A stretch of 36,474 nucleotides of DNA, taken from IMG/VR virus record IMGVR_UViG_3300029820_000012, positions 1 through 36,474 of that record. The stretch is one strand, 5' to 3'. The position numbers and the translations under genes were made by a program. This document shows, in pieces, positions 3,745-36,474 of this stretch. The notes beneath the pieces are model-generated. The model had not been told where the DNA came from, ran no database searches, and saw nothing but the letters and a program-made list of their open reading frames with translations. The stretch is from a virus. Each line of letters starts with the position of its first letter. Within the stretch, counting starts at the first letter, position 1.

Positions 3745-4194
3745 GGATGGGGGAAGAGATGGAAAGTCTCGAAAAGGATGCGGGGCCCCGGCGGATCCGG
3801 TCTCGGGGGCGGTTCGGTGCGCAACCCTCGCCGCCTCCCTAGCCCGGGTCGTTATCCGCCATCCTGCACGGTTATCAGACCAGATCCCGCCCGGATTTCC
3901 CCGTGCCTGCCCTATACCCCTTTAATAACTGCCAATCGGGAGAGGGACTGGAGAGCTTCGGCGGGACTTTCGGTAGCCCGCGGTCTGGCTGCCTCGCCGC
4001 GCGTCGTTGCGCCGACGCCTTCGGCTCGGGCTTTTCCGGCTTCCGTATGCCGGGCGGGGCCCTACTTTACGGCGGCCCGCGTCCTCAAAACTGCCTTCAA
4101 GGAGATGGCTCCCTTCCGTCGGTTGACAGGACGCTTGGATTGTACCGCCGTGAGCAGCGGATTGAAAGCGACTACATGAAAGAGGTTACTGGCT

Positions 4195-5596: not shown

Positions 5597-5827
5597 ATGT
5601 GGATGTCGATAGCCAAGGGCGCGCGTTACGCCTGCTGCGACAACGTCACGTTCCGTGCGATGGTCATGCAGGGGATCATCCCGCGCTACCCGTCGCTCAA
5701 CCCGAACAGCTCGCGCGAGGTGGTGAGCAGCGAGGACATCGACGCCGCCATCAGGGCGCGCGGGGCGGTGCCAGCGCTGCCGTCGCCCGACTGCGTGCCG
5801 GCGCGCCGACCGAGGCGGGTGGCGTGA
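5597..5827 (+). CDS. AlpA/excisionase-like (HTH_17) small DNA-binding protein
   Basis: SIAKGARYACCDNVTFRAMVMQGIIP follows the HTH_17 pattern. AAAGGAGAAGG SD. Confidence 0.5.
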   Translation: MWMSIAKGARYACCDNVTFRAMVMQGIIPRYPSLNPNSSREVVSSEDIDAAIRARGAVPALPSPDCVPARRPRRVA

Positions 5828-5985: not shown

Positions 5986-6047
5986 CTCCCATTTACCTTG
6001 ACAGCTGCATAGCGATCGGGGCGGCGGCCCGGGGAAGGGAGCCGCCC

Positions 6048-6153
6048 TATGGAAAGAAGAAAGCCGCCCACCTGGGCGATCATCCTGTTCGTCATCTCCT
6101 ACAGCGTGTTCTTCGCCATCGGCTTCGCTATAGCCCAAGCCACGAGCGGATGA
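6048..6153 (+). CDS. 35-aa membrane micro-ORF (MERRKPPTWAIILFVISYSVFFAIGFAIAQATSG)
   Basis: GAAGGGAG SD. One clear TM helix. Too short for the ORF track. Confidence 0.35.
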
Positions 6154-6586
6154 TGGCGATCAGGCCGTGGCCGTAGGTCCCGCCGAAAAAGCCCGCGACG
6201 GCTCCCGAGACCACGCTGAAGAGCGCCACGAGGTAGTCGTGCCTGCGCCCGCCACGGACGTTCTCGCGCTCGATGCGCGCCGCCTCGTCGCGGTCGCGGA
6301 ACCAGCAGCGCCCCTCCGAGGTCAGCTCGCCGAATTCCGCCCGCGGGCCGGGCACCGGCTGCGGCGCGATCAGGCCCTTTTCCGCAAGCGCCTCGTAGAC
6401 GGCGCGCTCCCTGCCGTATCCCGGCGAGTACCTGCATTCCTCGTTTCCGTGCGCGTCGGTGGCCGCCGCCTCGGACAGCTCGCCGTAGAGCCTGCGGGCT
6501 ATGTGCTCGTCCACCGACCCGCCGTTCTCCTCAATCTCGAGGAGCCTCCTGAGATAGGACTGCTCCTCGCTCGTCAATTCGACCAT
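6128..6586 (-). CDS. Hypothetical protein with C-terminal TM anchor (152 aa)
   Basis: GC3-biased minus frame. GGAGG SD. C-terminal hydrophobic helix. Confidence 0.55.
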   Translation of the reverse strand: MVELTSEEQSYLRRLLEIEENGGSVDEHIARRLYGELSEAAATDAHGNEECRYSPGYGRERAVYEALAEKGLIAPQPVPGPRAEFGELTSEGRCWFRDRDEAARIERENVRGGRRHDYLVALFSVVSGAVAGFFGGTYGHGLIAIIRSWLGL

Positions 6587-6621
6587 CCGGACCTCCGCCC
6601 CGATCGCTATGGCAGTTCATG

Positions 6622-6638
6622 CGAGGCCTTGGGCCTCG
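6622..6638. promoter_or_regulatory. Palindrome CGAGGCC-TTG-GGCCTCG in the divergent promoter region upstream of the ParB-like gene
   Basis: Read directly. 7-bp arms, 3-nt spacer. Confidence 0.4.
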
Positions 6639-6652
6639 AGACAGGAGGATAC

Positions 6653-7906
6653 ATGCAATTCGAGAAGAAGTCTGTGCGCCTGGGCGATATCCGCCCGAGC
6701 GGGCAGAACCCGCGCGAGGACTTCGGCGACATCGGCGCCCTGGCCCGCAGCATCGAGGCGACCGGCGGCGAGCCGCTGAACCCGCCCGTGGTCGTGGCGG
6801 ACGGCAACGTGTTCCGCATCGCGGACGGCGAGCGCCGCTACCGCGCACTGTCCTCGATTTACGGGGAGGACCGCGAGGTCTCCGCGCTGGTGGCGGAGAG
6901 CATGGACGAGGCCGACGAGCTCGTGGCCATGCTCGCCACCGACGACAAGCGCCAGCTGACCGAGGCCGAGCGCGCACGCGGCGTGCAGCAGATGCTCGTG
7001 CTTGGCGTCGACGAGCAGCGCATCGAGCGCGCCAGCCGAGCCACCGCCGGGCAGATCCGCGCGGCGCGCAGGCTTCGCGGGAGTATCGAGGGCCGCCAGG
7101 TGACGCTGGAGCAGCTCGAGGCCGCGAGCGCCTTCGACGACGAGAGGGACGTCGAGGCGGTCCTCGCCGCAGGTGACGGCTGGGCGGGCAAGGCCGACCA
7201 GATCCGCCGCCGCAACGAGCGCGAGGAGGCCAAGGCCGAGGACTACGACGCCTTCGGAGATGCGGGGATTCCCGTGGTGAAGGAGCAGCCGGAGGGTTTC
7301 AACTACACGGACTGGGCCAACGTCGGCCTCGCCGCCCAGAAACTCGAGGGGAAGGAGTTCGCCGCCGGCACCGTTGCCGTGTGGAAGGGCAGCTACTGGG
7401 ACCTCTACGAGCCGGATGACGGCTCGGGCGCCGGGCCCGAGAAGACCGAGGAGGAGATTCGGGCCGAGCAGGAGGCCGAGCGCGAGAAGGCGGCGCTCGA
7501 GGAACTGTACAGGAGCCTGATCGGCTTCGTGGCGTCCGGCGCTTTCGCCATGTCCAAGGACCTCATGGTGGAGGTGCGCGTGGGCCGCGAGGACCCGCCC
7601 GCGCTGCTCATGGCGATGGGCGGCGACAGCCACCCCGAGAACGAGGGGCGTTTCGGGCTCGTGCGAGACGAGTTCGCCCGCAACCTCAAGGCGTGCAGGC
7701 CCAGCGAGTACGAGGCCGGCTGCTGGCTCATGGCGGCGGCCAAGGACATGGCCCAGCTCAACAACCGCTGGGGCGGCGACGACGCGGAGGCGTGGCTCGA
7801 CCACTATGACATCTTCCTCTCCGCGGGCTTCGAGCCCGGCGAGGAGGACGTGTGGCTCATGGAGAGGGTGCAGGCGAGCGCCAAGGAGGAGGAGAAGGAT
7901 GAGTAG
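6653..7906 (+). CDS. ParB-like nuclease-domain protein (ParB/Srx N-terminal fold)
   Basis: N-term LGDIRPSGQNPREDFGDIGALARSIEATGGEPLNPPVVVADGNVFRIADGERRYRAL contains the ParB GERRxRA box. CAGGAGG SD. Acidic C-terminal tail. Confidence 0.7.
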   Translation: MQFEKKSVRLGDIRPSGQNPREDFGDIGALARSIEATGGEPLNPPVVVADGNVFRIADGERRYRALSSIYGEDREVSALVAESMDEADELVAMLATDDKRQLTEAERARGVQQMLVLGVDEQRIERASRATAGQIRAARRLRGSIEGRQVTLEQLEAASAFDDERDVEAVLAAGDGWAGKADQIRRRNEREEAKAEDYDAFGDAGIPVVKEQPEGFNYTDWANVGLAAQKLEGKEFAAGTVAVWKGSYWDLYEPDDGSGAGPEKTEEEIRAEQEAEREKAALEELYRSLIGFVASGAFAMSKDLMVEVRVGREDPPALLMAMGGDSHPENEGRFGLVRDEFARNLKACRPSEYEAGCWLMAAAKDMAQLNNRWGGDDAEAWLDHYDIFLSAGFEPGEEDVWLMERVQASAKEEEKDE

Positions 7907-8255
7907 CGAGAAGAAGGTCAGGGTGACGGTGGAGGCGTGCGGCGAGGCCCGCGCTTTCGAGTGCCGTTGCGCGACGGTCTCGACCGCCAACGGGGACGGC
8001 TCCGGCGACTCTTGCTTCGTGGGCGCGACCAGCACCAGGGACCTGTTCGCGCTCGCCTGCGAGTGCACCGACGCGCTCTGCGTGGCCTTCAGCCAGGCGG
8101 GCGTCCCGGACAGGAACGCGCGCAAGCTCGTGCTCATAGCCGCCCTCGGCGCCAATCCCCATGGGCACGCCGACAGCATCCAGACCACCGACCTGGACGC
8201 GCGCAGGGAGATCCGCGACATGGCTGCGGAGCTTGGCGTCGATGCCGACATCTAG
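7899..8255 (+). CDS. Hypothetical Cys-rich protein (118 aa)
   Basis: GGAGGAGAAGG SD. In-frame ATG overlapping the ParB-like stop. Confidence 0.5.
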   Translation: MSSEKKVRVTVEACGEARAFECRCATVSTANGDGSGDSCFVGATSTRDLFALACECTDALCVAFSQAGVPDRNARKLVLIAALGANPHGHADSIQTTDLDARREIRDMAAELGVDADI

Positions 8256-9435
8256 CGAGCGCCGGGCGGTCGTGCAGCGCGGGGCGGACGGCCGCTGGTT
8301 CGCCCGCCCCTACATGGGCACCGACCGCGCCACGGGCAGGCGGATCAGGCCGTATAAGTCCTGGGACGGGGGCCTGACCCGCGAACAGGCCCAGGCCGAG
8401 TGCGACAAATGGGTCGCGACCTATATCCCCTCCTCGGCGCAGGACAGCTCCAAGCGCCTGTCATCGATGCTCGTGACCTATGTCTCTGACCCGGTGACCG
8501 GCCTGTCCGACAACTCGGTCGCAGCCTACCGCAGCGTGATCAGGACGATGGTGGAGCCGACCATCGGGCGCATCCCCTACGACCAGCTGCAGCCGTGGGA
8601 CGTGTCGGCGGCGTACCGCACGCTGCTCGCGCCCAGGACGGGCAAGGGGCTGTCGCCCAAGACCGTGCGGCTCATGCACTCGCTACTCAAGGTCGCGTAC
8701 GGGAAGTGGCGCCATGTCATCGGCTACAACGTCATGCTCGAGGTCCCGGCCCCCAAGGTGAAACCAGGGGAGCCGTTCGCCCTGTCCGAGCTCGATGCGG
8801 ACGGGCTGTCCCGCGCGATGGTGTCCGCCATGTCCTCGCACGACGCCACGGGCGCCAACATCGCCCGGCGCACCGAGGCCATGGCTGTCTTCCTCGCGCT
8901 CCACACGGGCATGCGGGTCGGGGAGGTCTGCGGCCTGCAGCGCCGCGACTGGCGCCGCTCACTGCACGACATCCACGTAGCCGGGCAGGCCGTCGAGAAG
9001 CCCAGCCTGCACAGGCAGCCCTTCACCAAGGGCAAGCGCTCGCGGAACGTCTCGATCCCGCCGGCGGTCGAGGCGCAGCTGGAGCGCCACCTGGCGTGGC
9101 AGGACACGTGGCTCGTCCGCAAGGGGCCGGCCGCGCCCCTGATCACCTTCGGGCCCGCGGGAGGGCTCGCGAGGCCGTCGACCGTGACGGCCCGGTTCAA
9201 GGCGATCGCGCGCGAGCTCGAGCTGCCCGGGGAGACGGTCTTCCACACGCTTCGGCACACGCACGCCACGTGGCTGCTCACGCACGGGTGGGACATGCGC
9301 CTGGTGCAGGAGCGCCTGGGGCACGCGAACGTCAAGACGACGCTCGAGATATACGGCTCGGTGCTGCCGGGCCGCGACAGGGAGGCCGCCGCGGCCTTCA
9401 CCGATTCGATCTACGGAGGTGATATGGATGGATAA
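8242..9435 (+). CDS. Second full-length tyrosine integrase (arm-binding N-domain plus catalytic domain)
   Basis: N-term RRAVVQRGADGRWFARPYMGTDRATGRRIRPYKSWDGGLTREQAQAECDKW is the integrase arm-binding pattern. C-term RVGEVCGLQRRDW...FHTLRHTHATWLL...LGHANVKTTLEIYGSVLP has the R..HxxR..Y box. Confidence 0.85.
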   Translation: MPTSSERRAVVQRGADGRWFARPYMGTDRATGRRIRPYKSWDGGLTREQAQAECDKWVATYIPSSAQDSSKRLSSMLVTYVSDPVTGLSDNSVAAYRSVIRTMVEPTIGRIPYDQLQPWDVSAAYRTLLAPRTGKGLSPKTVRLMHSLLKVAYGKWRHVIGYNVMLEVPAPKVKPGEPFALSELDADGLSRAMVSAMSSHDATGANIARRTEAMAVFLALHTGMRVGEVCGLQRRDWRRSLHDIHVAGQAVEKPSLHRQPFTKGKRSRNVSIPPAVEAQLERHLAWQDTWLVRKGPAAPLITFGPAGGLARPSTVTARFKAIARELELPGETVFHTLRHTHATWLLTHGWDMRLVQERLGHANVKTTLEIYGSVLPGRDREAAAAFTDSIYGGDMDG

Positions 9436-10105
9436 GTTCAACTTCAACAGGGACTTCTACGAGGGCTGCCGCGCCCTGGGCGACAGGGAGGGCATGGCGC
9501 TCGCGTGGGCGATGCTGCGCTACGGCTACGAGGGCATCGAGCCAAAGCTGAAGCCCACCACCATGGCGGCCTTCAGCTTCGCAAGGGGGCGCATCGACGC
9601 CATGGTGAGCGGCAGCATGGGCGGCCGCGCAAGGGCCGCCAAGTCTTCCGGTCGGGTGCCTTGCCAAGGGGGTAGCCAAGGGGGTAGCCAAGGGGGTAGC
9701 CAAGGGGCTACCCAACAGGGTAACCAACAGAAGGAGAAGGAGAAGGAGAAGGAGATAACCCTTGCGGGTTATAGCGCGGCCCGCCAAGCCCCCGACGACT
9801 TCGACCCGCCCTCGATGGAGGACGTCGAGGCCTACTTCGCCGCCAACTGCCTGCGCGGCGACCCCCGCCAGTTCTTCGACCACTACGCAGCACAGGGCTG
9901 GACGCTGCCGAGCGGCCTGCCCGTGACCGACGTGTGGGCGCTTGCCCGCAACTGGAGCCGCAAGCAGGTCGGCTTCGATGCCGACCGCAAGGCGCGGGGC
10001 GGGCAGACCTCCCAGGAGGTCGAGCGGGCATCCGTGTGGAAGCCCGTGAAGACTGATGCGGAGCGCATAGTCGAACTCAGGCGCGAGCTGGGTGAGGCGT
10101 CATGA
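9428..10105 (+). CDS. Putative replication initiation / replisome-organizer-like protein with internal low-complexity linker
   Basis: N-term DKFNFNRDFYEGCRALGDREGMALAWAMLRYGYEG resembles phage replisome-organizer N-domains. Linker QGGSQGGSQGGS...KEKEKEKE is encoded by DNA tandem repeats. GGAGGT SD. Confidence 0.45.
   Translation: MDKFNFNRDFYEGCRALGDREGMALAWAMLRYGYEGIEPKLKPTTMAAFSFARGRIDAMVSGSMGGRARAAKSSGRVPCQGGSQGGSQGGSQGATQQGNQQKEKEKEKEITLAGYSAARQAPDDFDPPSMEDVEAYFAANCLRGDPRQFFDHYAAQGWTLPSGLPVTDVWALARNWSRKQVGFDADRKARGGQTSQEVERASVWKPVKTDAERIVELRRELGEAS
9661..9750 (+). repeat. Coding tandem repeats: 12-nt CCAAGGGGGTAG x3 then 6-nt AAGGAG x4
   Basis: Read directly inside the CDS 9428-10105. 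Confidence 0.8.
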
Positions 10106-10506
10106 TCACCCTTTGGGAGATGCTCGAGAACGAGAAGGCCGACCCCGCCCACGGCCGCCCGCTCGACCTGACGCGGATCTACATGGCAAACGTCATGTCG
10201 CACGGGGATGCCGCCCGGCTGACCAAGGAGCAGGAGCTCCACGACACGGAGGCGCGCGAGGCGCAGCGCGCCGACCTGTACGAGAGAGTCGCCGCCATCG
10301 CGGGCGGCAAAAAGCCGGAGGGCGAGGAGTCGGAGAGCGAGGACCCGGAGCGCAGGTGTGTCAATGGTGTGCCAACGGGCGCGGCGGAGTTAGGGCAGCA
10401 GACGCTGGGGTTTCCGCCGCTAGACGGCGCAGGCGGCACGGCCGAGGAGGCCGAGGCCGCAATTAATGCCATATTGTCCGAAGAGAGAAAGCGAGAGACG
10501 TTTTGA
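10102..10506 (+). CDS. Hypothetical acidic protein (134 aa)
   Basis: ATGA overlap with the upstream gene. GC3-rich. Confidence 0.55.
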   Translation: MITLWEMLENEKADPAHGRPLDLTRIYMANVMSHGDAARLTKEQELHDTEAREAQRADLYERVAAIAGGKKPEGEESESEDPERRCVNGVPTGAAELGQQTLGFPPLDGAGGTAEEAEAAINAILSEERKRETF

Positions 10507-12390: not shown

Positions 12391-12426
12391 GTTTCCGCAG
12401 GTAGACATAGGTAGATATATAATTAA

Positions 12427-12458
12427 GGCCGCTGGCGTTGGAGCGCCGGCGGCCTTTG
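12427..12458 (+). terminator. GC hairpin (GGCCGCTGGCG/CGCCGGCGGCC) plus TTTGG at the end of the early operon
   Basis: Read directly. One mismatch in an 11-bp stem. Confidence 0.45.
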
Positions 12459-12972: not shown

Positions 12973-13040
12973 GCTAGATATAACTCTATCGAGACCCGTC
13001 GGCTCCGCGCCGGCGGGTTTCTCTCTTCTTGCTGGCTGCA

Positions 13041-13148
13041 CGCGATTGCACACGGTTGCACGCCGTTGCACACAATTGCACGCGATTGCCTACGATTGCA
13101 CGCAATTGCCTACGATTGCACGCGATTGCACACCGTTGCACGTTGCGG
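13041..13148. repeat. Array of about 11 tandem 10-bp repeats (CRCNRTTGCA; TTGCAC core) with exact helical phasing, flanked by direct GATATAACT (12977-12985 and 13153-13161); candidate packaging-recognition or activator-binding site
   Basis: Read directly. Every printed 10-mer block between 13041 and 13148 ends in TTGCA/TTGCC. Confidence 0.85.
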
Positions 13149-13296
13149 CTGGGATATAACTAGGGTGTCGATTCGCAGCGCCGCCCGCGCGGTGTGCGGG
13201 TCGGAGTGCGTGGAAGCACAGATGAGTGGCCGGGGTCCCCTTAGCAGTTCAGGGCCCTGGCCTTTCTATTGAACGACAACGTAATGAGGTGGGTCC

Positions 13297-18445: not shown

Positions 18446-18519
18446 ACCTGGCTAGCACAATGGCAGTGCGGCGGTCTCCAAAACCGCTTACCGGGGTTCG
18501 ATTCCTCGGCCAGGTGCCA
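18446..18519 (+). tRNA. tRNA-Trp (anticodon CCA)
   Basis: Hand-folded cloverleaf. Acceptor ACCTGGC/GCCAGGT, D-stem GCAC/GTGC, anticodon stem GCGGT/ACCGC, loop CTCCAAA, T-loop TTCGATT, 3' GCCA. Confidence 0.8.
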
Positions 18520-18520
18520 T

Positions 18521-18605
18521 CGGGGCGTGGCGGAATGGCAGACGCGCGTGCCTCAGGAGCACGTGGGCATCGCCCGTGCGGGTTCGAGTCCCGCCGCCCC
18601 GACCA
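18521..18605 (+). tRNA. tRNA-Leu (anticodon CAG), class II with long variable arm
   Basis: Acceptor CGGGGCG/CGCCCCG. Anticodon stem CGTGC/GCACG, loop CTCAGGA. Variable arm TGGGCATCGCCCGT. T-loop TTCGAGT. 3' ACCA. Confidence 0.8.
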
Positions 18606-18616
18606 AAAGTTGAACC

Positions 18617-18642
18617 AGGCCATCCGCACGGGTGGCCTTTTT
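18617..18642 (+). terminator. Intrinsic terminator after the tRNA pair (AGGCCA...TGGCCT stem, TTTTT)
   Basis: Read directly. Confidence 0.6.
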
Positions 18643-18655
18643 CATGCCGAAAAGA

Positions 18656-18691
18656 GCCCCGCACGGGGCAAGACGATGCCCCGCACGGGGC
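18656..18691. promoter_or_regulatory. Two direct copies of the near-palindromic 14-mer GCCCCGCACGGGGC, 22 bp apart, upstream of the scaffold/capsid genes
   Basis: Read directly. The same 10-mer core forms the hairpin at 1014-1049. Confidence 0.6.
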
Positions 18692-18709
18692 GGAAATGGA
18701 GGGAGCATG

Positions 18710-19228
18710 GCCCAGGAGACCACGCCCGCCGAGACCGATCCGACCAACCCTGCACAGGGCGGAGACGCCGGTCAGGAGCCCGACTACAAGGCGCTCTACG
18801 AGAACGCGCTGAAGGAGTCGCGCAAGTGGGAGAGCCGCTCGAAGGCGAACCTCAAGGAGCTCGACGAGCTCAAGGCCGCGGCACCCAAGGCGGACCCGAC
18901 CGTGGAGGAGCGCCTGAGCGCGCTCGAGAGCGAGAACGCCGCCCTCAAGGCGACCGCCGCCCGCTCCGCGCTCGTCGACTCCGTGGCCAAGGCCACCGGA
19001 CTCGACCGCTCCATCGTGGCCACGCTCAACGGCGAGGACGAGGACGCGCTCACCGAGCAGGCCAAGGCCGTGGCGGCCATCACGAAACCGGCCGGCGGCG
19101 CGCCGAAGGCGCCCGAGGCCGGCGGCAAGCCCAAGCCCGGCAAGCCCTCCAAGAAGGACATCCTCGGAATCGAGGACAAGAAGGAACGCATGGCGGCCAT
19201 CGCCGCCAACATCGACCTCTTCAAGTAA
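18710..19228 (+). CDS. Scaffolding protein
   Basis: 172 aa, Ala/Lys/Glu-rich coiled coil (LKELDELKAAAPK...LSALESENAALKATAARS). Immediately upstream of the major capsid gene. GGAGGG SD. Confidence 0.65.
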   Translation, partial: AQETTPAETDPTNPAQGGDAGQEPDYKALYENALKESRKWESRSKANLKELDELKAAAPKADPTVEERLSALESENAALKATAARSALVDSVAKATGLDRSIVATLNGEDEDALTEQAKAVAAITKPAGGAPKAPEAGGKPKPGKPSKKDILGIEDKKERMAAIAANIDLFK

Positions 19229-19246
19229 GGGGAGAAAGGGGCCCCA

Positions 19247-20092
19247 ATGCCCGATATCAAGACCCTCGCAGCCGCGCGCAACGTCGACCTCGTGAACACC
19301 TTCACCAAGTCGCTCGAGAAGCTCACGGCTATGCTGTCCACCTGCGCGCCCATCCACGCGGCCGTTGGCGAGACGCTCCACCAGAAGAAGATCATCGGCA
19401 AGCTCTCCGAGGCCGAGTACACCCCCGGCCAGGACATCCCGCTGTCCAGCTACGACTACGCGGACGTCGCGACCTACGAGGTGACGCTCAAGCCCTACCG
19501 CAGGCAGACCATGCTGCAGGAGGTCAAGAAGCGCGGCTACGACGGCGCCGTCGACAAGACCGACGCCGCGATGATCTCCGACATGCAGCGCGACATCAAG
19601 AAGGACTTCGTCGCCGCGCTCGGCGCCGAGGGCACCACGGCCGCGACCGGCAAGAGCCTCGTGGCCACCGCCGCGAACGCCTGGGCCGCCCTGTCCAACC
19701 TCACCGAGGAGTACGGCTTCGGCAGCGGCGAGACCGTCTACTTCGCCAACCCGGTCGACTTCGCCAAGCAGATCGGCGAGTCCGAGGTCTTCAGCGCCTT
19801 CGGCATCTCCTACATCGAGAACTGGGCGGGCCTGGGCACGCTCGTGTCCACCGGCTCCGTCGCCGCCGGCACGATCTACGCGACCGTCAAGGACAACATC
19901 AAGGTCTACGTCGCTCCGACCGACGGCGACGACCTGTTCGGCTTCTACTCCGACGAGAGCGGCTACATCGCCGTGTCCCACTCGCCCGAGCTCAAGAGCC
20001 TGACCTACGACACCGTGGCCTACGTCGGCCTCGTGTTCTTCGCCGAGTACATCGACTTCGTGGTCAAGGGCACCATCGCCCCGACCGCCTAG
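19247..20092 (+). CDS. Major capsid protein
   Basis: 281 aa. Position after the scaffold gene. Gly/Ala/Thr-rich composition typical of HK97-fold capsid proteins. AAAGGGG SD. Confidence 0.7.
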   Translation: MPDIKTLAAARNVDLVNTFTKSLEKLTAMLSTCAPIHAAVGETLHQKKIIGKLSEAEYTPGQDIPLSSYDYADVATYEVTLKPYRRQTMLQEVKKRGYDGAVDKTDAAMISDMQRDIKKDFVAALGAEGTTAATGKSLVATAANAWAALSNLTEEYGFGSGETVYFANPVDFAKQIGESEVFSAFGISYIENWAGLGTLVSTGSVAAGTIYATVKDNIKVYVAPTDGDDLFGFYSDESGYIAVSHSPELKSLTYDTVAYVGLVFFAEYIDFVVKGTIAPTA

Positions 20093-20111
20093 GCAACCCT
20101 AAGGAGCATCC

Positions 20112-20459
20112 ATGATCGCTTTGGTCACCTACCCGTACCGTGACCGCGAGACCCTCGCGGTGCATCTCGTGGGGGAGGAGGTCGAGCTGACCGACGAGCG
20201 CTTCGCGGAGCTGTCCGCCGGCGGCTTCGTCGACCTCCCGCCCGCCGAGCCCGAGGTTAGCGCGGAGCCCGTCGAGGACGATGGCGCCGAGGGAGAGGGC
20301 GTTGAGGACGCCGCGCCCGCGCCCGAGCAGCCCGTGCCCGAGAAGCCCGCGAACGATATGACCGTGCAGCAGCTTCGCGCTGCCATCGAGGCCGCCAACG
20401 GCTTCGCGCCGCGCAAGGCGACCAAGGCCGAGCTCATCGCCATCCTGGAGACGCTCTAG
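20112..20459 (+). CDS. Head-associated protein with C-terminal HeH/Rho-N-like motif
   Basis: C-term MTVQQLRAAIEAANGFAPRKATKAELIAILETL resembles the SAP/HeH motif. AAGGAG SD. Confidence 0.45.
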   Translation: MIALVTYPYRDRETLAVHLVGEEVELTDERFAELSAGGFVDLPPAEPEVSAEPVEDDGAEGEGVEDAAPAPEQPVPEKPANDMTVQQLRAAIEAANGFAPRKATKAELIAILETL

Positions 20460-31097: not shown

Positions 31098-31493
31098 ATG
31101 GCGGGTATCTTCAGCTACGCCAAGACGCTTTGGCAGGACGGCGTCACGGCGATCACCGCTGCGCGACTCAACCACATCGAGCAGGGCATCTCCGATGCCG
31201 CGGACAGCATCAAGACCCTCGGGGATTCCGTATCCCAAATCGGAAACATCGAGTCGAGGCAGGTGTTCTGGCAGTCCCAATCGGAGACCACGGACCTGAT
31301 GCTCAAGAGGACGTGGACCTCCATCAAAACGGTCACGCCCACCATCCTGTGGACCGTGGCCGATTCGAATGGCCAGGCTATGTGCGGAATCGCGTACAAG
31401 CACTCTGACAAATACGGCGCCTTCATCGAGTTCGGGTATTCCCGAGGATTCGCGTCATGGAAGCTGTTAGACGGCTTGTGGATCAAGGAGTAG
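31098..31493 (+). CDS. Tail fibre / receptor-binding protein N-terminal (constant) module; ends at the TAG embedded in repeat R1
   Basis: N-term MAGIFSYAKTLWQDGVTAITAARLNHIEQGI resembles the conserved N-terminus of siphovirus fibre/BppU-type proteins. GAGAGGAAAG SD. GC drops to about 50% from this point. Confidence 0.55.
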   Translation: MAGIFSYAKTLWQDGVTAITAARLNHIEQGISDAADSIKTLGDSVSQIGNIESRQVFWQSQSETTDLMLKRTWTSIKTVTPTILWTVADSNGQAMCGIAYKHSDKYGAFIEFGYSRGFASWKLLDGLWIKE

Positions 31494-31506
31494 CCTTCCG
31501 TATCCC
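31491..31506 (+). repeat. Shufflon-like repeat R1 (TAGCCTTCCGTATCCC)
   Basis: Read directly. Confidence 0.85.
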
Positions 31507-31739
31507 TGCAATGGTGGGGCACATCGGTTTCGTTCAATCTTGAGACGGCAAAGACGTTTGCAATCGTCGTGATCGGCGCGACTGATACCCCGATAAAAGG
31601 CCCGTTCATGGTTTGGTTCAGCTCGGCAAAACCAAGCAGCACGGCGCTGCCAGACGGTGTAACCATCTCCAATGATGGAAGAATGGTCACCGTCTCATAC
31701 CGCAGCGATGTGACATTCGTAGTGCAGAAATATGTCTGC
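31494..31739 (+). other. In-frame fibre-tip cassette 1 (82 codons, open from R1 to the TAG of R2, same frame as the 31098 gene)
   Basis: No stop for 82 codons in the frame set by the repeat. Ends exactly at R2's TAG. Confidence 0.6.
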
Positions 31740-31755
31740 TAGTTTTCCGTATCCC
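31740..31755 (+). repeat. Shufflon-like repeat R2 (TAGTTTTCCGTATCCC)
   Basis: Read directly. 249 bp (83 codons) from R1. Confidence 0.85.
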
Positions 31756-32051
31756 AAGCTCGCGGCGATTGTTATTCGAGCGACATGAATGACATCACCA
31801 AACCAGGAACATACCGTGTCGGAAATAGCGTCACGCTGAATAAGCCGCCTAATGCATACGGATGGGGCTTCTTGCTGGTGTTCACACCCAGCGACAACTA
31901 CGCAGTGCAGGTCTATGTCCCGGAAGGCATAACTGGAAATTTATATTGGCGCAGTATTTGGAGAGGGGATGCCGATCAATGGAGTGTCGTCAAAGGCAAC
32001 GTACTGGCTTCAGCCGACTCGTCCGACCAGACGGACGCAGAGCTTAGCTAG
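31743..32051 (+). other. In-frame cassette 2 (102 codons from R2; contains the ATG-initiated 88-aa track ORF 31785-32051); ends at TAG 32049-32051
   Basis: Open in frame 0 from R2. Convergent with minus-strand cassette 3 at the junction TAGgCTA. Confidence 0.55.
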
Positions 32052-32055
32052 GCTA

Positions 32056-32244
32056 CCTCGACAGCGCGACCTTTGTTGATGCACCAGTCGCGCTGTTCGT
32101 GTAGCTGAACTTGTCGGCAGAAAAACCGAGCGTCACGACCGAATCGTCGGACATCGTAACCTCGACGATCACATCGGTCGTGTTGTTGTTCGACTGCCTG
32201 AAGCGCACGTTTTTCACTATAGCAGTCACGTATTTATCGCAACG
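32056..32244 (-). other. Minus-strand cassette 3 (63 codons from R3 to the junction stop)
   Basis: Open in the SVS frame of R3. Confidence 0.55.
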
Positions 32245-32259
32245 GGATACGGAATGCTA
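32244..32259 (-). repeat. Repeat R3 (minus orientation: TAGCATTCCGTATCCC)
   Basis: Read directly. Confidence 0.85.
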
Positions 32260-32448
32260 TTTAGTCCAGAGCGTCTTGAGATTTCCAGTAGACCCGTACT
32301 GCAATTTGATGCCTTCTGCTTTCGAGATGGTGACGTAAAGCGATTTGCCGTCCTTTAAACAGAATTGCACTTGGATATAAGTGTCCTCGCCCGATCCCCA
32401 CGAGCCACACGAGATGGAGATGACGTCTCCCCAGAAGGTCGGCACTCG
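32260..32448 (-). other. Minus-strand cassette 4 (63 codons, R4 to TAG of R3; track ORF 32257-32445)
   Basis: Open. Ends at R3's TAG. Confidence 0.55.
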
Positions 32449-32463
32449 GGATACGGAATGCTA
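32448..32463 (-). repeat. Repeat R4 (TAGCATTCCGTATCCC)
   Basis: Read directly. 204 bp from R3. Confidence 0.85.
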
Positions 32464-32646
32464 TGCGCTGTAGATATCCGTGTGCGTTTCGCCAACGCGC
32501 TTGTACACGTTTATCTTCTTGGATGATGCCTTCTCGGTTGGGAACGATGCTATGTACTCACCATCGCTGCATTTGAAGACAATGCCAAAGTCATCGTTTG
32601 TAATTGACAAAGAGACAACTTCCGCCTTGTTTATTAGCTTAACCCG
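32464..32646 (-). other. Minus-strand cassette 5 (61 codons, R5 to TAG of R4; no internal ATG)
   Basis: Open. No methionine codon in frame. Confidence 0.55.
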
Positions 32647-32661
32647 GGATACGGAAAACTA
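32646..32661 (-). repeat. Repeat R5 (TAGTTTTCCGTATCCC)
   Basis: Read directly. 198 bp from R4. Confidence 0.85.
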
Positions 32662-32931
32662 TGCAACCGATACGGAGCATACGTCACCAATCGGTGTCAT
32701 GACTAATCCTGAAGACCAGTTTGTAGTTTTTATTACGGCAGTCTTATTGTTCGGGAATGTGATGTTAAGGCTCTGACCTGCAAGAATCTTACTCGTCGAG
32801 TCCATACAATTCAGGAATATGGCGCTCGGGGCGCCGTTGTTGTCGATAATCAGGAGTGCCGACGAATGGTTGGCGGATTCAAACGAAATCGTCACGCTGC
32901 TTTTGTCGCCTACGGTAAACGTTTTCAACGG
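32662..32931 (-). other. Minus-strand cassette 6 (90 codons, R6 to TAG of R5; part of track ORF 32659-32985)
   Basis: Open. Upstream open frame is antisense to the recombinase 3' end and starts only at a TTG. Confidence 0.5.
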
Positions 32932-32943
32932 GGATACGGAATC
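32931..32943 (-). repeat. Repeat R6, terminal variant (GGTGATTCCGTATCCC; no TAG), abutting the recombinase stop codon
   Basis: Read directly. 285 bp from R5. Confidence 0.8.
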
Positions 32944-33817
32944 ACCACTCCATAGCAGCCGAGTACGAATCGCTCGCCCTGGCAACGACCGTCCTGAAGC
33001 TCTGTAGATAGTGCGACATGGCGGTATTAACAGTCGAATGCCCCAGCGCCACGGCTATGTCCTCGATGGCGGCTCCATGCTCAAGCGATATGGTCGCCCA
33101 GCTGTGGCGCAGGCAGGTCATAGGCACGTGCGGCAAGCTGAACCGCTTGCAGAACGCGCGGAACTTTCGAGCCACGGTGTTCGGATCCAGTTGGCAAAGC
33201 CTGCCGGACCTACGCGCGCCCCTGATGGCGCGGAGCCTCTCGAGGGCAAAACGAGGTAGCTTGAGTCGCCTGTCTGAGAGTTTGGTTTTGCACCCGGTCT
33301 CGATGACATCGCCCTTTACGACATGCAGCCCGCGCCGTACGTGCACCCAGCCGCTCCTCCAATCGATATCCTCAACGCGGACGGCACACGCCTCGCAGCG
33401 CCGCAGGCCGAGCGTGGCGCCCAGGAGCACCGCCGGCTCGAAAGGCTGTCCGACGATCGCCCTAAGGGTCGTTCGCTCCTGTTCGGCCGTCAACGTAGGG
33501 CGGCGCGCGGTTGGTTTCTGCGGCAGCTCCACACCCTGGGTTACATCCCAAATGCGGAGCTGGTGGCGCCTCAGTATCCATCGGTAAATCTGGCGGAACG
33601 TCTTGTACGCCTTCTCCGCCGCGCCTGCCCTGTCGAACTCATCGATCCATTCCTGGACCTGCTCAAAAGTAATCGAATCTATCTCGCGATTGCCCCATTG
33701 GGAGATGAGGTGGCAGCGTATCGCGCTCTCGTAGCCCTCGAGGGTGGTGGCGCGCAGGCGCTTTCGCTTGTCGGCCATGTACTCGGCGGCGGCATCTTTG
33801 AACAGCATTTCGATCAT
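32942..33817 (-). CDS. Tyrosine site-specific recombinase (Rci/Xer-like, no arm-binding domain); candidate shufflon invertase
   Basis: C-term LRHSWATISLEHGAAIEDIAVALGHSTVNTAMSHY carries the HxxR...H...Y box. Preferred start is ATG 33817 with TAGGAG SD. Track start 33955 is a GTG upstream of a 14-bp inverted repeat. Confidence 0.75.
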   Translation of the reverse strand: MIEMLFKDAAAEYMADKRKRLRATTLEGYESAIRCHLISQWGNREIDSITFEQVQEWIDEFDRAGAAEKAYKTFRQIYRWILRRHQLRIWDVTQGVELPQKPTARRPTLTAEQERTTLRAIVGQPFEPAVLLGATLGLRRCEACAVRVEDIDWRSGWVHVRRGLHVVKGDVIETGCKTKLSDRRLKLPRFALERLRAIRGARRSGRLCQLDPNTVARKFRAFCKRFSLPHVPMTCLRHSWATISLEHGAAIEDIAVALGHSTVNTAMSHYLQSFRTVVARASDSYSAAMEW

Positions 33818-35782: not shown

Positions 35783-35922
35783 ATGCATGACTTAATATCC
35801 GTTAATAACCGTTCCACAATGCAGTTTCAGCGCGTACGGCGCTGGCGAGAACATCGTTACCTGCAAGTATGCAGATACAGCGCGTGCCAAAACGTCACGT
35901 TCAAGACTCTTAATCCCAAGGT

Positions 35923-35950
35923 CCAGGGTTCGACCCCCTGACGGCCCACC
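35923..35950 (+). other. tRNA 3'-end-like segment (T-arm CAGGG-TTCGACC-CCCTG, acceptor ACGGCCC, discriminator A); candidate attP core
   Basis: Read directly. No matching 5' acceptor strand upstream, so it is a partial tRNA. Lies just downstream of the int 3' end and is followed by a terminator. Confidence 0.5.
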
Positions 35951-36111: not shown

Positions 36112-36474
36112 TTAGAGCGTCTCGGCGTTGCGACCGGTGCCATTAAAACCGCCCTCCGCGCCTCCGCCCTCGACGATCTGCAGGGCTCGTCCGACCTGCC
36201 TGGCGGCCTTCTCGCGCTCCGCCAGACCCGGTTTGATGTAATGGCGGTAATCTGTCCCCAGGTCCGTATGGCCGTGCAAATCCATGATGCTCAGGGGGTC
36301 GACCTCGGTCGCCGCCATGATGGTCTCGGACGTGTGGCGCAGGGCCTTGGGCGGGATATACCGCAGGTCATGGCGTGCGCACATGCGCCGCCAGGCGCGC
36401 ACGAGGTTGTCGCCGCGCATGTTCACGATGCGCTGGCCGCTCCAGTCGCGCACCTGCTCCGTAACCGAAGTCCC
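36112..36474 (-). CDS. int: Tyrosine integrase, C-terminal catalytic part (continues from 1-975 across the circular junction)
   Basis: Translation ...LRHTSETIMAATEVDPLSIMDLHGHTDLGTDYRHYIKPG carries the HxxR...H...Y tyrosine-recombinase box. Stop at 36112-36114. Confidence 0.85.
   Translation of the reverse strand, partial: GTSVTEQVRDWSGQRIVNMRGDNLVRAWRRMCARHDLRYIPPKALRHTSETIMAATEVDPLSIMDLHGHTDLGTDYRHYIKPGLAEREKAARQVGRALQIVEGGGAEGGFNGTGRNAETL

Follow-up and report, generated by a model that had tools for sequence, protein, structure and literature searches.

A Conserved Tyrosine Recombinase in the Early Operon of Coriobacteriia Temperate Phages, Very Probably Not Used for Integration

An Early-Operon Recombinase Conserved among Coriobacteriia Prophages

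The IMG/VR virus record IMGVR_UViG_3300029820_000012 (36,474 nucleotides, analysed over its whole length and referred to below as the window) carries, on the + strand at 8242–9435, the gene of a 397-amino-acid (aa) tyrosine recombinase, here called Int2, which lies within the early operon and is distinct from the integrase encoded near the phage attachment site (attP). Int2 is very probably a conserved early-operon recombinase that is not used for integration. Related phages always keep it among early replication genes, and it should therefore have a conserved job other than chromosomal insertion; its persistence alongside either a tyrosine or a serine integration enzyme points to a function linked to the lytic cycle or to replication.

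Locus contexts were drawn from NCBI, ENA, Logan contigs, IMG/VR and GTDB genomes, covering isolates, metagenome-assembled genomes (MAGs) and viromes, and gene order was mapped by tblastn of the window proteins onto the relatives' loci. More than 250 Int2 homologues were recovered, and genes of the Int2 clade were found in ~100 Coriobacteriia prophage loci, including isolate genomes of Collinsella aerofaciens. The same order recurs, namely a boundary recombinase (−), a repressor (−), cro (+), optionally a ParB-like gene and a small open reading frame (ORF), Int2 (+) and a replication initiator (+). Across these ~100 loci, Int2 is always in the early operon, always on the cro strand and never at a prophage boundary, with identical gene order and orientation around it in all of them. 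In a search anchored on the ParB-like or initiator proteins, it lies between its flanks in every locus that carries both (61/61). Its median ratio of nonsynonymous to synonymous substitution rates (dN/dS) is the lowest of the operon (0.18, compared with 0.26 for the initiator, 0.49 for the ParB-like gene and 0.73 for a 118-aa ORF), and degenerate copies are rare (a frameshift in P0018, a deletion fusion in P0045 and a partial gene in L154).

The clade is a distinct one: its members score at least 149 bits against one another, whereas no boundary integrase, nor the Rin-like recombinase of the window described below, exceeds 61 bits against them, and no characterised phage integrase is more than 28% identical to Int2. 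Protein-level searches returned no Int2 homologue above 29% identity in cultured phages or plasmids, a DNA-level search of cultured phages with the window gave no match, and no description of the Int2 clade, or of the DUF6291 family of the downstream initiator, was found in the literature.

In the window, the early operon runs from a ParB/KorB-like gene through the 118-aa ORF, Int2 and a lambda-O-like initiator gene to two small ORFs. Successive genes overlap by 8, 14, 17, 4 and 4 nucleotides (nt), and the run is thus read as one translationally coupled operon, so that Int2 should be produced alongside the replication proteins once the phage has infected or been induced.

Catalytic Residues and Predicted Fold of Int2

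Both the catalytic set and the core-binding/catalytic fold place Int2 in the tyrosine recombinase superfamily. The initial annotation of this DNA, which was made from the sequence alone, had called a 397-aa tyrosine recombinase within the early operon, and the ORF, the Pfam match (Phage_integrase, PF00589, E = 8e-23) and the PHROG match (PHROG 1 'integrase', E = 1e-49) agree with it. It had also called the catalytic box complete, correctly so: R225, K263, H335-x-x-R338, H361 and Y371 (the R-K-H-R-H-Y set) are all present and are invariant across 26 homologues down to 34% identity, with none of the inactivating substitutions in relatives that the same annotation had envisaged.

The predicted architecture comprises an arm-type N-domain (residues ~10–60), a core-binding domain (73–167) and a catalytic domain (183–391). 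In the AlphaFold2 model, which has a predicted local distance difference test (pLDDT) score of 87, an N-terminal beta-sheet and helix (10–60) are followed by a flexible linker and by the core-binding and catalytic domains. Foldseek with this model ranks Tn1549 Int first (E = 1e-11), lists full-length lambda Int among the top matches, with a structural alignment that spans ~390 columns, and also matches XerA, IntI4 and Cre. The arm-type N-domain proposed earlier is suggested by the model and its Foldseek matches, while sequence-level support is weak: AP2 is matched in 5 of the 26 members at E ≥ 0.004, and Arm-DNA-bind_4 at E = 0.41. In the alignment, this N-domain is the most conserved part of Int2.

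Integration and Shufflon Inversion Are Served by Other Recombinases

The gene of the separate integrase, Int1 (412 aa in all, − strand), is split by the contig ends: its N-terminal 325 codons lie at 1–975, and it continues over the circular junction (36375→36112) into a C-terminal part at 36112–36474, where 36376–36474 is an exact repeat of bases 1–99. This 99-nt terminal overlap indicates that the window was assembled as a circle of 36,375 bp. The Int1 stop is ~160 bp from the attP core (35905–35950, + strand), which matches the 3′ 46 nt of tRNA-Lys(CTT) exactly, and in integrated relatives Int1 adjoins tRNA-His and one or two tRNA-Lys genes. Since Int1 lies beside a tRNA-Lys attP and relatives are integrated at tRNA genes, Int1 with this attP is the integration system, and Int1 the bona fide boundary integrase, in agreement with the separate attP-proximal integrase noted at the outset.

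The boundary enzyme varies among the relatives, being Int1 type A in 39 loci, a 24–27% identical tyrosine integrase (type B) in 13, a large serine recombinase in 22 and other tyrosine types in a few, and Int2 is kept under every one of these types. A small Xis-like ORF of 76 aa (5597–5827, +) co-varies with Int1 type A and not with Int2, being absent where Int1 is of type B; it has no Pfam or PHROG family match, and from its co-occurrence with Int1 type A we infer that it may be an Xis.

A third tyrosine recombinase, a Rin-like protein of 291 aa without an arm domain (32942–33817, −), adjoins a Rin-type shufflon (31226–32941), in which seven exact copies of TTCCGTATCCC (+ strand at 31226, 31496 and 31745; − strand at 32244, 32448, 32646 and 32931) bound low-GC cassettes (GC 50–55%; ~68% in the window) downstream of a tail-fibre-like gene at 31098–31493. 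A search for TTCCGTATCCC gave nine matches, including two with one mismatch, where 0.41 would be expected. Int2 is 21% identical to the Rin-like protein (60 bits), and it is not regarded as the shufflon invertase because this separate gene adjoins the shufflon. The phage thus encodes three tyrosine recombinases, with Int1 serving integration and the Rin-like protein serving the shufflon, and neither task requires Int2. Shufflons with a Rin recombinase have been described in Bifidobacterium and Eggerthella prophages (PMC8778435). These systems resemble the present one in host class (Actinobacteria/Coriobacteriia) and in having a second recombinase besides the integrase, but Rin adjoins invertible receptor-binding-protein cassettes with inverted crossover sites, whereas Int2 has no inverted repeats nearby.

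The Downstream Initiator and a Putative Origin

The gene that follows Int2 in the window encodes a replication initiator-like protein of the DUF6291 family (228 aa, 9419–10105, +), the start of which overlaps the Int2 stop by 17 nt. Inside this gene lies a putative origin (9651–9772), made of 12-nt iterons of sequence GCCAAGGGGGTA (9651–9727), a purine-rich low-GC tract (9728–9754) and the palindrome ATAACCC-TTGC-GGGTTAT (9755–9772), a layout similar to that of the lambda origin inside gene O. The stems of the palindrome change in a compensatory manner among relatives (ATAACCC/GGGTTAT, ATAGCCC/GGGCTAT, AAAACCC/GGGTTTT and CCTCCCC/GGGGAGG), and the iteron sequence switches with the type of initiator (GCCAAGGGGGTA versus AAGCAAACnnnn) while Int2 stays ~77% identical. 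Iteron copy number ranges from ~2 to 8.5 among relatives.

Int2 is usually directly upstream of the lambda-O-like initiator gene, and in distant Int2 phages the gene just after it either bears iterons (L067, L075, L079) or resembles a replisome organiser (Lin1244_N, in L097). The Int2 stop lies ~230–340 bp upstream of the iterons and palindrome in the window-type phages, L004 and L067, and within ~1 kb of them in L075 and L079. The initiator/origin gene, and not the ParB-like gene, is the tighter and more widely conserved neighbour of Int2. Further downstream, a direct repeat (GGTGTGTCAAT GGTGTGCCAAC) is found at 10355–10377 inside the ORF at 10102–10506, and is kept in relatives as GGTGTGCCAAT or AGGTATGCCAA repeats.

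The ParB-Like Gene, the Variable Slot and the Accessory Cassette

On the other side of Int2, the window encodes an orphan ParB/Noc/KorB-like protein (417 aa, 6653–7906, +), whose N-terminal ~180 aa are conserved and whose C-terminal half is variable. It matches Pfam ParB_N at E = 4.7e-4, below the gathering score, and the PHROG ParB-like family at 3e-21, and it aligns to Spo0J (1vz0). The NPR (box I) and GERRYRA (box II) motifs are invariant in 30 ParB-like sequences, a helix-turn-helix (HTH) domain follows, and the first ~200 residues of the structural model match ParB-CDP, Noc and KorB in Foldseek, so that the ParB-like gene with a GERRxRA box of the initial annotation holds. Box III of ParB, ENxxR(E/D), which is needed for the hydrolysis of cytidine triphosphate, is not present, and the aligned segment is an invariant ATDDK. 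More than 1,300 homologues of this protein were recovered. The early ORFs scanned yielded no ParA, and the window no repeated parS-like palindrome. The gene is missing in five loci that all have Int2 (L004, L049, L095, L097 and L098), and it is therefore a frequent but dispensable neighbour rather than an obligate partner.

Int2 had been thought to follow the ParB-like gene directly, which is not the case: the 118-aa ORF (7899–8255, +), with no Pfam or PHROG family match, overlaps both genes and occupies a small-ORF slot whose content varies among relatives.

Upstream of the ParB-like gene lies an accessory cassette of ~655 bp (5986 to ~6640), with two convergent ORFs of 34 aa (6050–6153, +) and 152 aa (6128–6586, −), each preceded by one copy of a 25-nt sequence. 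These copies form inverted repeats at 6008–6032 and 6587–6611 that bound 554 bp. Of the related loci, 13 carry the cassette, all in one orientation, and 33 do not; in the latter, the stop codon of the upstream ORF is immediately followed by the ribosome-binding site and ATG of the ParB-like gene. Its presence or absence as a unit suggests a moron. The palindrome CGAGGCC-TTG-GGCCTCG, which had been placed in the promoter region of the ParB-like gene, is indeed found at 6622–6638, as one of ~40 such palindromes with 7-bp arms in the window. The palindrome sits inside the accessory cassette, which most relatives do not have, and is thus no conserved ParB operator or promoter element.

The Search for an Int2 Target Site

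The Int2 gene overlaps the genes on either side, which leaves no non-coding DNA next to it, and the att-like site with arm repeats that the initial annotation had suggested looking for was searched for and not found. Conserved 10-mers within 4 kb of Int2 in 20 divergent loci were GC-rich background words only, and no core-type inverted repeats (11-nt arms, 6–8-nt spacers) occur near Int2 in the window. The search for such repeats gave 13 overlapping matches (~9 distinct sites), with 2.65 expected; three of these sites are intergenic, terminator-like hairpins (12426–12455 and two in the attP region), and the rest lie inside ORFs.

Several candidates were considered and rejected. The 12-nt repeats in the next gene, taken as possible arm sites of Int2, follow the type of initiator and not Int2, as expected of origin iterons. 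An array at 13027–13156 was considered as arm sites or as parS; its type differs among phages with 97%-identical Int2, and it is kept in L049, which has no ParB-like gene. A 20-nt inverted repeat (10017–10036/10150–10169) lies in coding sequence and its variants show no compensatory changes. The segment between the 25-nt inverted repeats of the cassette, considered as an invertible one, has the same orientation in all 13 carriers, and the other 33 of the 46 relatives lack it. Finally, a chimeric PASTA-Int2 ORF on a 2.3-kb contig (P0016) could have been an integration junction; the join falls inside the core-binding domain of Int2, and it is a probable assembly chimera.

The array at 13027–13156 consists of ~12 tandem units of 10 nt (TGCACRCNNT), a phasing of one helical turn, and is located between the gene of a Q/sigma-r4-like regulator and the HNH/terminase genes; the unit types of relatives include TGCAGACAAT and ATTGCGYGTG. 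It could be a binding array for the terminase or a late regulator near cos.

Diversity at four-fold degenerate sites dips to 0.03–0.13, against means of 0.18–0.23, within the ParB-like, Int2 and initiator genes. The low-diversity stretches are codons 14–47 of the ParB-like gene (6692–6793), codons 4–27 (8251–8322) and 346–393 (9277–9420) of Int2, and codons 160–192 of the initiator (9896–9994). Such dips could reflect cis-acting DNA or conserved recombination linkers.

What Might Int2 Do in the Early Operon?

The explanation that we favour overall, and hold tentatively, is that Int2 is an early-operon recombinase acting on replicating phage DNA. This reading draws on co-expression with the initiator, closeness to the origin, the plasmid-backbone-like trio of ParB-like, recombinase and initiator genes, the arrangement of HNH and terminase genes, and the lack of recognisable general recombination genes: Pfam and PHROG family matching recognised no single-strand annealing protein (SSAP), exonuclease, helicase or primase among the early ORFs. 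Working in trans on the replicating circles of the phage itself, Int2 would interconvert their monomeric and multimeric forms by site-specific recombination, probably at a site within or close to the origin region. This specific mechanism, drawn by analogy, is possible and is put forward with more reserve. Recombination might resolve multimers, as P1 Cre/loxP or the ResD/rfsF system next to oriV1 of F would do, or it might fuse monomers into multimers that a cos/HNH-terminase phage could package; multimer formation would matter in a phage without recognisable general recombination genes. The Q/sigma-r4-like regulator and HNH endonuclease genes precede the terminase gene, and the position of HNH immediately upstream of it suggests cos-type packaging from multimers. 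It is more doubtful that the Int2 clade represents an arm-type integrase that has become a permanent part of the replication module in Coriobacteriia temperate phages and is essential there to the lytic cycle, where it would build packageable multimers or change the mode of replication at the origin.

Several points weigh against a recombinase acting on replicating phage DNA. The k-mer and inverted-repeat searches identified no recombination site for Int2, and the repeat arrays that do exist are otherwise explained, the iterons by the type of initiator and the 10-nt array by its independence of Int2. Cre, XerCD and ResD have no arm-binding N-domain, whereas the one predicted for Int2 is highly conserved, which points to a directional reaction of greater complexity or to the involvement of a further partner, either protein or DNA. 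That a phage should require a dedicated enzyme to resolve dimers or form multimers is itself argued by analogy. Moreover, Int2 is separated from the replication genes in L095 and L098, and adjacency to the initiator is thus not universal.

The main rival is an origin-linked replication role, in which Int2, as a co-opted replication factor, would cleave or remodel origin DNA (for example the palindrome) and so aid the start of replication or a switch of its mode. The short distance from the Int2 stop to the iterons and palindrome (~230–340 bp), the overlap of Int2 with the initiator start codon, the compensatory changes in the palindrome and the standing of Int2 as a core gene under the strongest constraint of the operon are all consistent with such a role. 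However, cleavage by tyrosine recombinases leaves a 5′-OH and a 3′-phosphotyrosine, which do not prime rolling-circle synthesis, and the lambda origin has an equivalent palindrome and no recombinase; loci with the type B initiator, whose Int2 is ~77% identical, do not have the same palindrome, and in L095 and L098 Int2 is not beside the initiator. This role is therefore considered unlikely. Maintenance as a phage-plasmid is improbable: here the ParB-like protein, Int2 and the initiator/origin would keep an extrachromosomal prophage by partition and dimer resolution, and a ParB/KorB-like gene, a tyrosine recombinase and an iteron origin on a circular window do resemble a plasmid backbone. Yet a circular assembly is equally expected of a phage genome or an excised form, the relatives, both isolates and MAGs, are integrated with host and tRNA genes adjoining the boundary recombinase, the genes in question follow cro in the operon of the lytic side, several Int2 phages have no ParB-like gene, and neither a ParA among the early ORFs nor a repeated parS-like palindrome in the window was found. 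From the partition-like and multimer-resolution module that the initial annotation had proposed for a phage-plasmid lifestyle, only a resolution-like recombination is thus carried forward.

Could Int2 instead act on DNA outside the phage, at a host site or on another mobile element, in the course of host takeover, element conflict or satellite mobilisation? No target was found within the phage, and the predicted arm-binding domain hardly varies between very dissimilar phages, which would fit a host-side target common to Coriobacteriia; no chimeric junctions were seen except the PASTA-Int2 contig, and little probability is given to this possibility. A second integration specificity, with an alternative bacterial attachment site (attB) in other hosts, had been among the initial proposals and is quite improbable. 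The full-length integrase architecture with its arm-type domain and an early expression that coincides with integration would suit it, but none of the ~100 loci is permuted at Int2 or has host DNA beside it, no non-coding DNA or att-like site is found there, and the boundary enzyme changes, even to a serine integrase, while Int2 stays and is never at the boundary. It is very improbable that Int2 is an invertase or switch that flips a phage segment, such as the cassette at 6008–6611, or assists the shufflon. The 25-nt inverted repeat around 554 bp, 1.6 kb upstream of Int2, and the presence of a shufflon in the genome had made this worth considering; against it, the cassette is absent from 33 of 46 Int2 loci and has a single orientation in all 13 carriers, the shufflon has its own Rin-like recombinase, and gene order around Int2 is constant. 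As for a mosaic remnant or the integrase of a co-assembled element, which had also been raised, a few copies are indeed degenerate (P0018, P0045, L154), but order and orientation kept in ~100 loci, the 61/61 anchored loci, the invariant catalytic residues and a dN/dS of 0.18 refute it.

Other Features of the Phage Genome

The occurrence of related loci in Collinsella and other Coriobacteriia genomes indicates that the window is the genome of a temperate phage of gut Collinsella. Its lysogeny side has a CI-like repressor and cro, with the early operon on the cro side, and structural genes and an amidase-type lysin are also encoded. Between Int1 and the repressor, a HicA toxin (1571–1750, −) and its HTH_17/HicB-like partner (1084–1533, −) form a toxin-antitoxin moron in the lysogeny module. 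The 450 bp after cro (3745–4194) contain no convincing ORF. ARAGORN calls putative tRNA-Trp(CCA) and tRNA-Leu(CAG) genes back to back at 18446–18605, upstream of or overlapping the start of the ORF at 18460–20115, and the same putative pair is called in the relative L038.

Relation to Known Systems and Significance

Lambda Int and the Tn916/Tn1549 Int proteins share with Int2 the R-K-H-R-H-Y set and the three-domain architecture predicted for it, and are its best structural matches. Unlike these integrases, Int2 is not at a boundary, has no adjacent att site or arm-site arrays that could be found, and lies in a cro-side early operon alongside a separate boundary integrase. Cre/loxP, ResD/rfsF and XerCD (acting at cer/dif) are multimer-resolution recombinases with known sites. 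P1 Cre/loxP, F ResD/rfsF near oriV1 and XerCD at cer/dif resemble the Int2 setting in that a recombinase is found in a replication/maintenance block near an iteron origin, next to a ParB-family gene; in contrast to them, Int2 has an N-domain, no site was found for it, its host element is an integrating phage, and its operon is on the lytic side. A similar distinction holds for the neighbouring gene, which has the same NPR/GERRYRA boxes and HTH as the ParB/Noc/KorB clamps and matches their fold over ~200 residues, and differs from them in having ATDDK at box III, an unrelated variable C-terminal half and an early-operon location. The Bifidobacterium phage Bbif-1 has a similar orphan parB-like gene in its early region, with no recombinase beside it. 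We know of no essential lytic-cycle role described in phage biology for heterobivalent tyrosine recombinases.

Extra tyrosine recombinases have been reported in other temperate phages, such as p22 of Bacillus phage phIS3501 (PMC3335513) and gp19, gp50 and gp175 of Tyrovirus (PMC9703825), which are conserved, distinct from the integrase and of a role that was left open in both cases. Their genes are found with those of the lytic cycle, of replication or of structural proteins, and the presence of three tyrosine recombinases in a single phage was called unusual (PMC3335513, PMC9703825). Hosts differ between these phages (Firmicutes) and the Int2 phages (Coriobacteriia), as do contexts and genome sizes, and only a superfamily-level sequence relation to Int2 is seen.

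Human gut metagenomes abound in Collinsella prophages of the Int2-bearing type. Annotation pipelines will give Int2 the label 'integrase', which can mislead the calling of prophage boundaries, the prediction of attP/attB and the bioprospecting of integrases, the last since no att site can be recognised for Int2 and integration is the work of another enzyme. If a lytic or replication role were confirmed, Int2 would represent a new functional class within the tyrosine recombinase family, and its role could help to explain the unexplained 'extra integrases' of other temperate phages.

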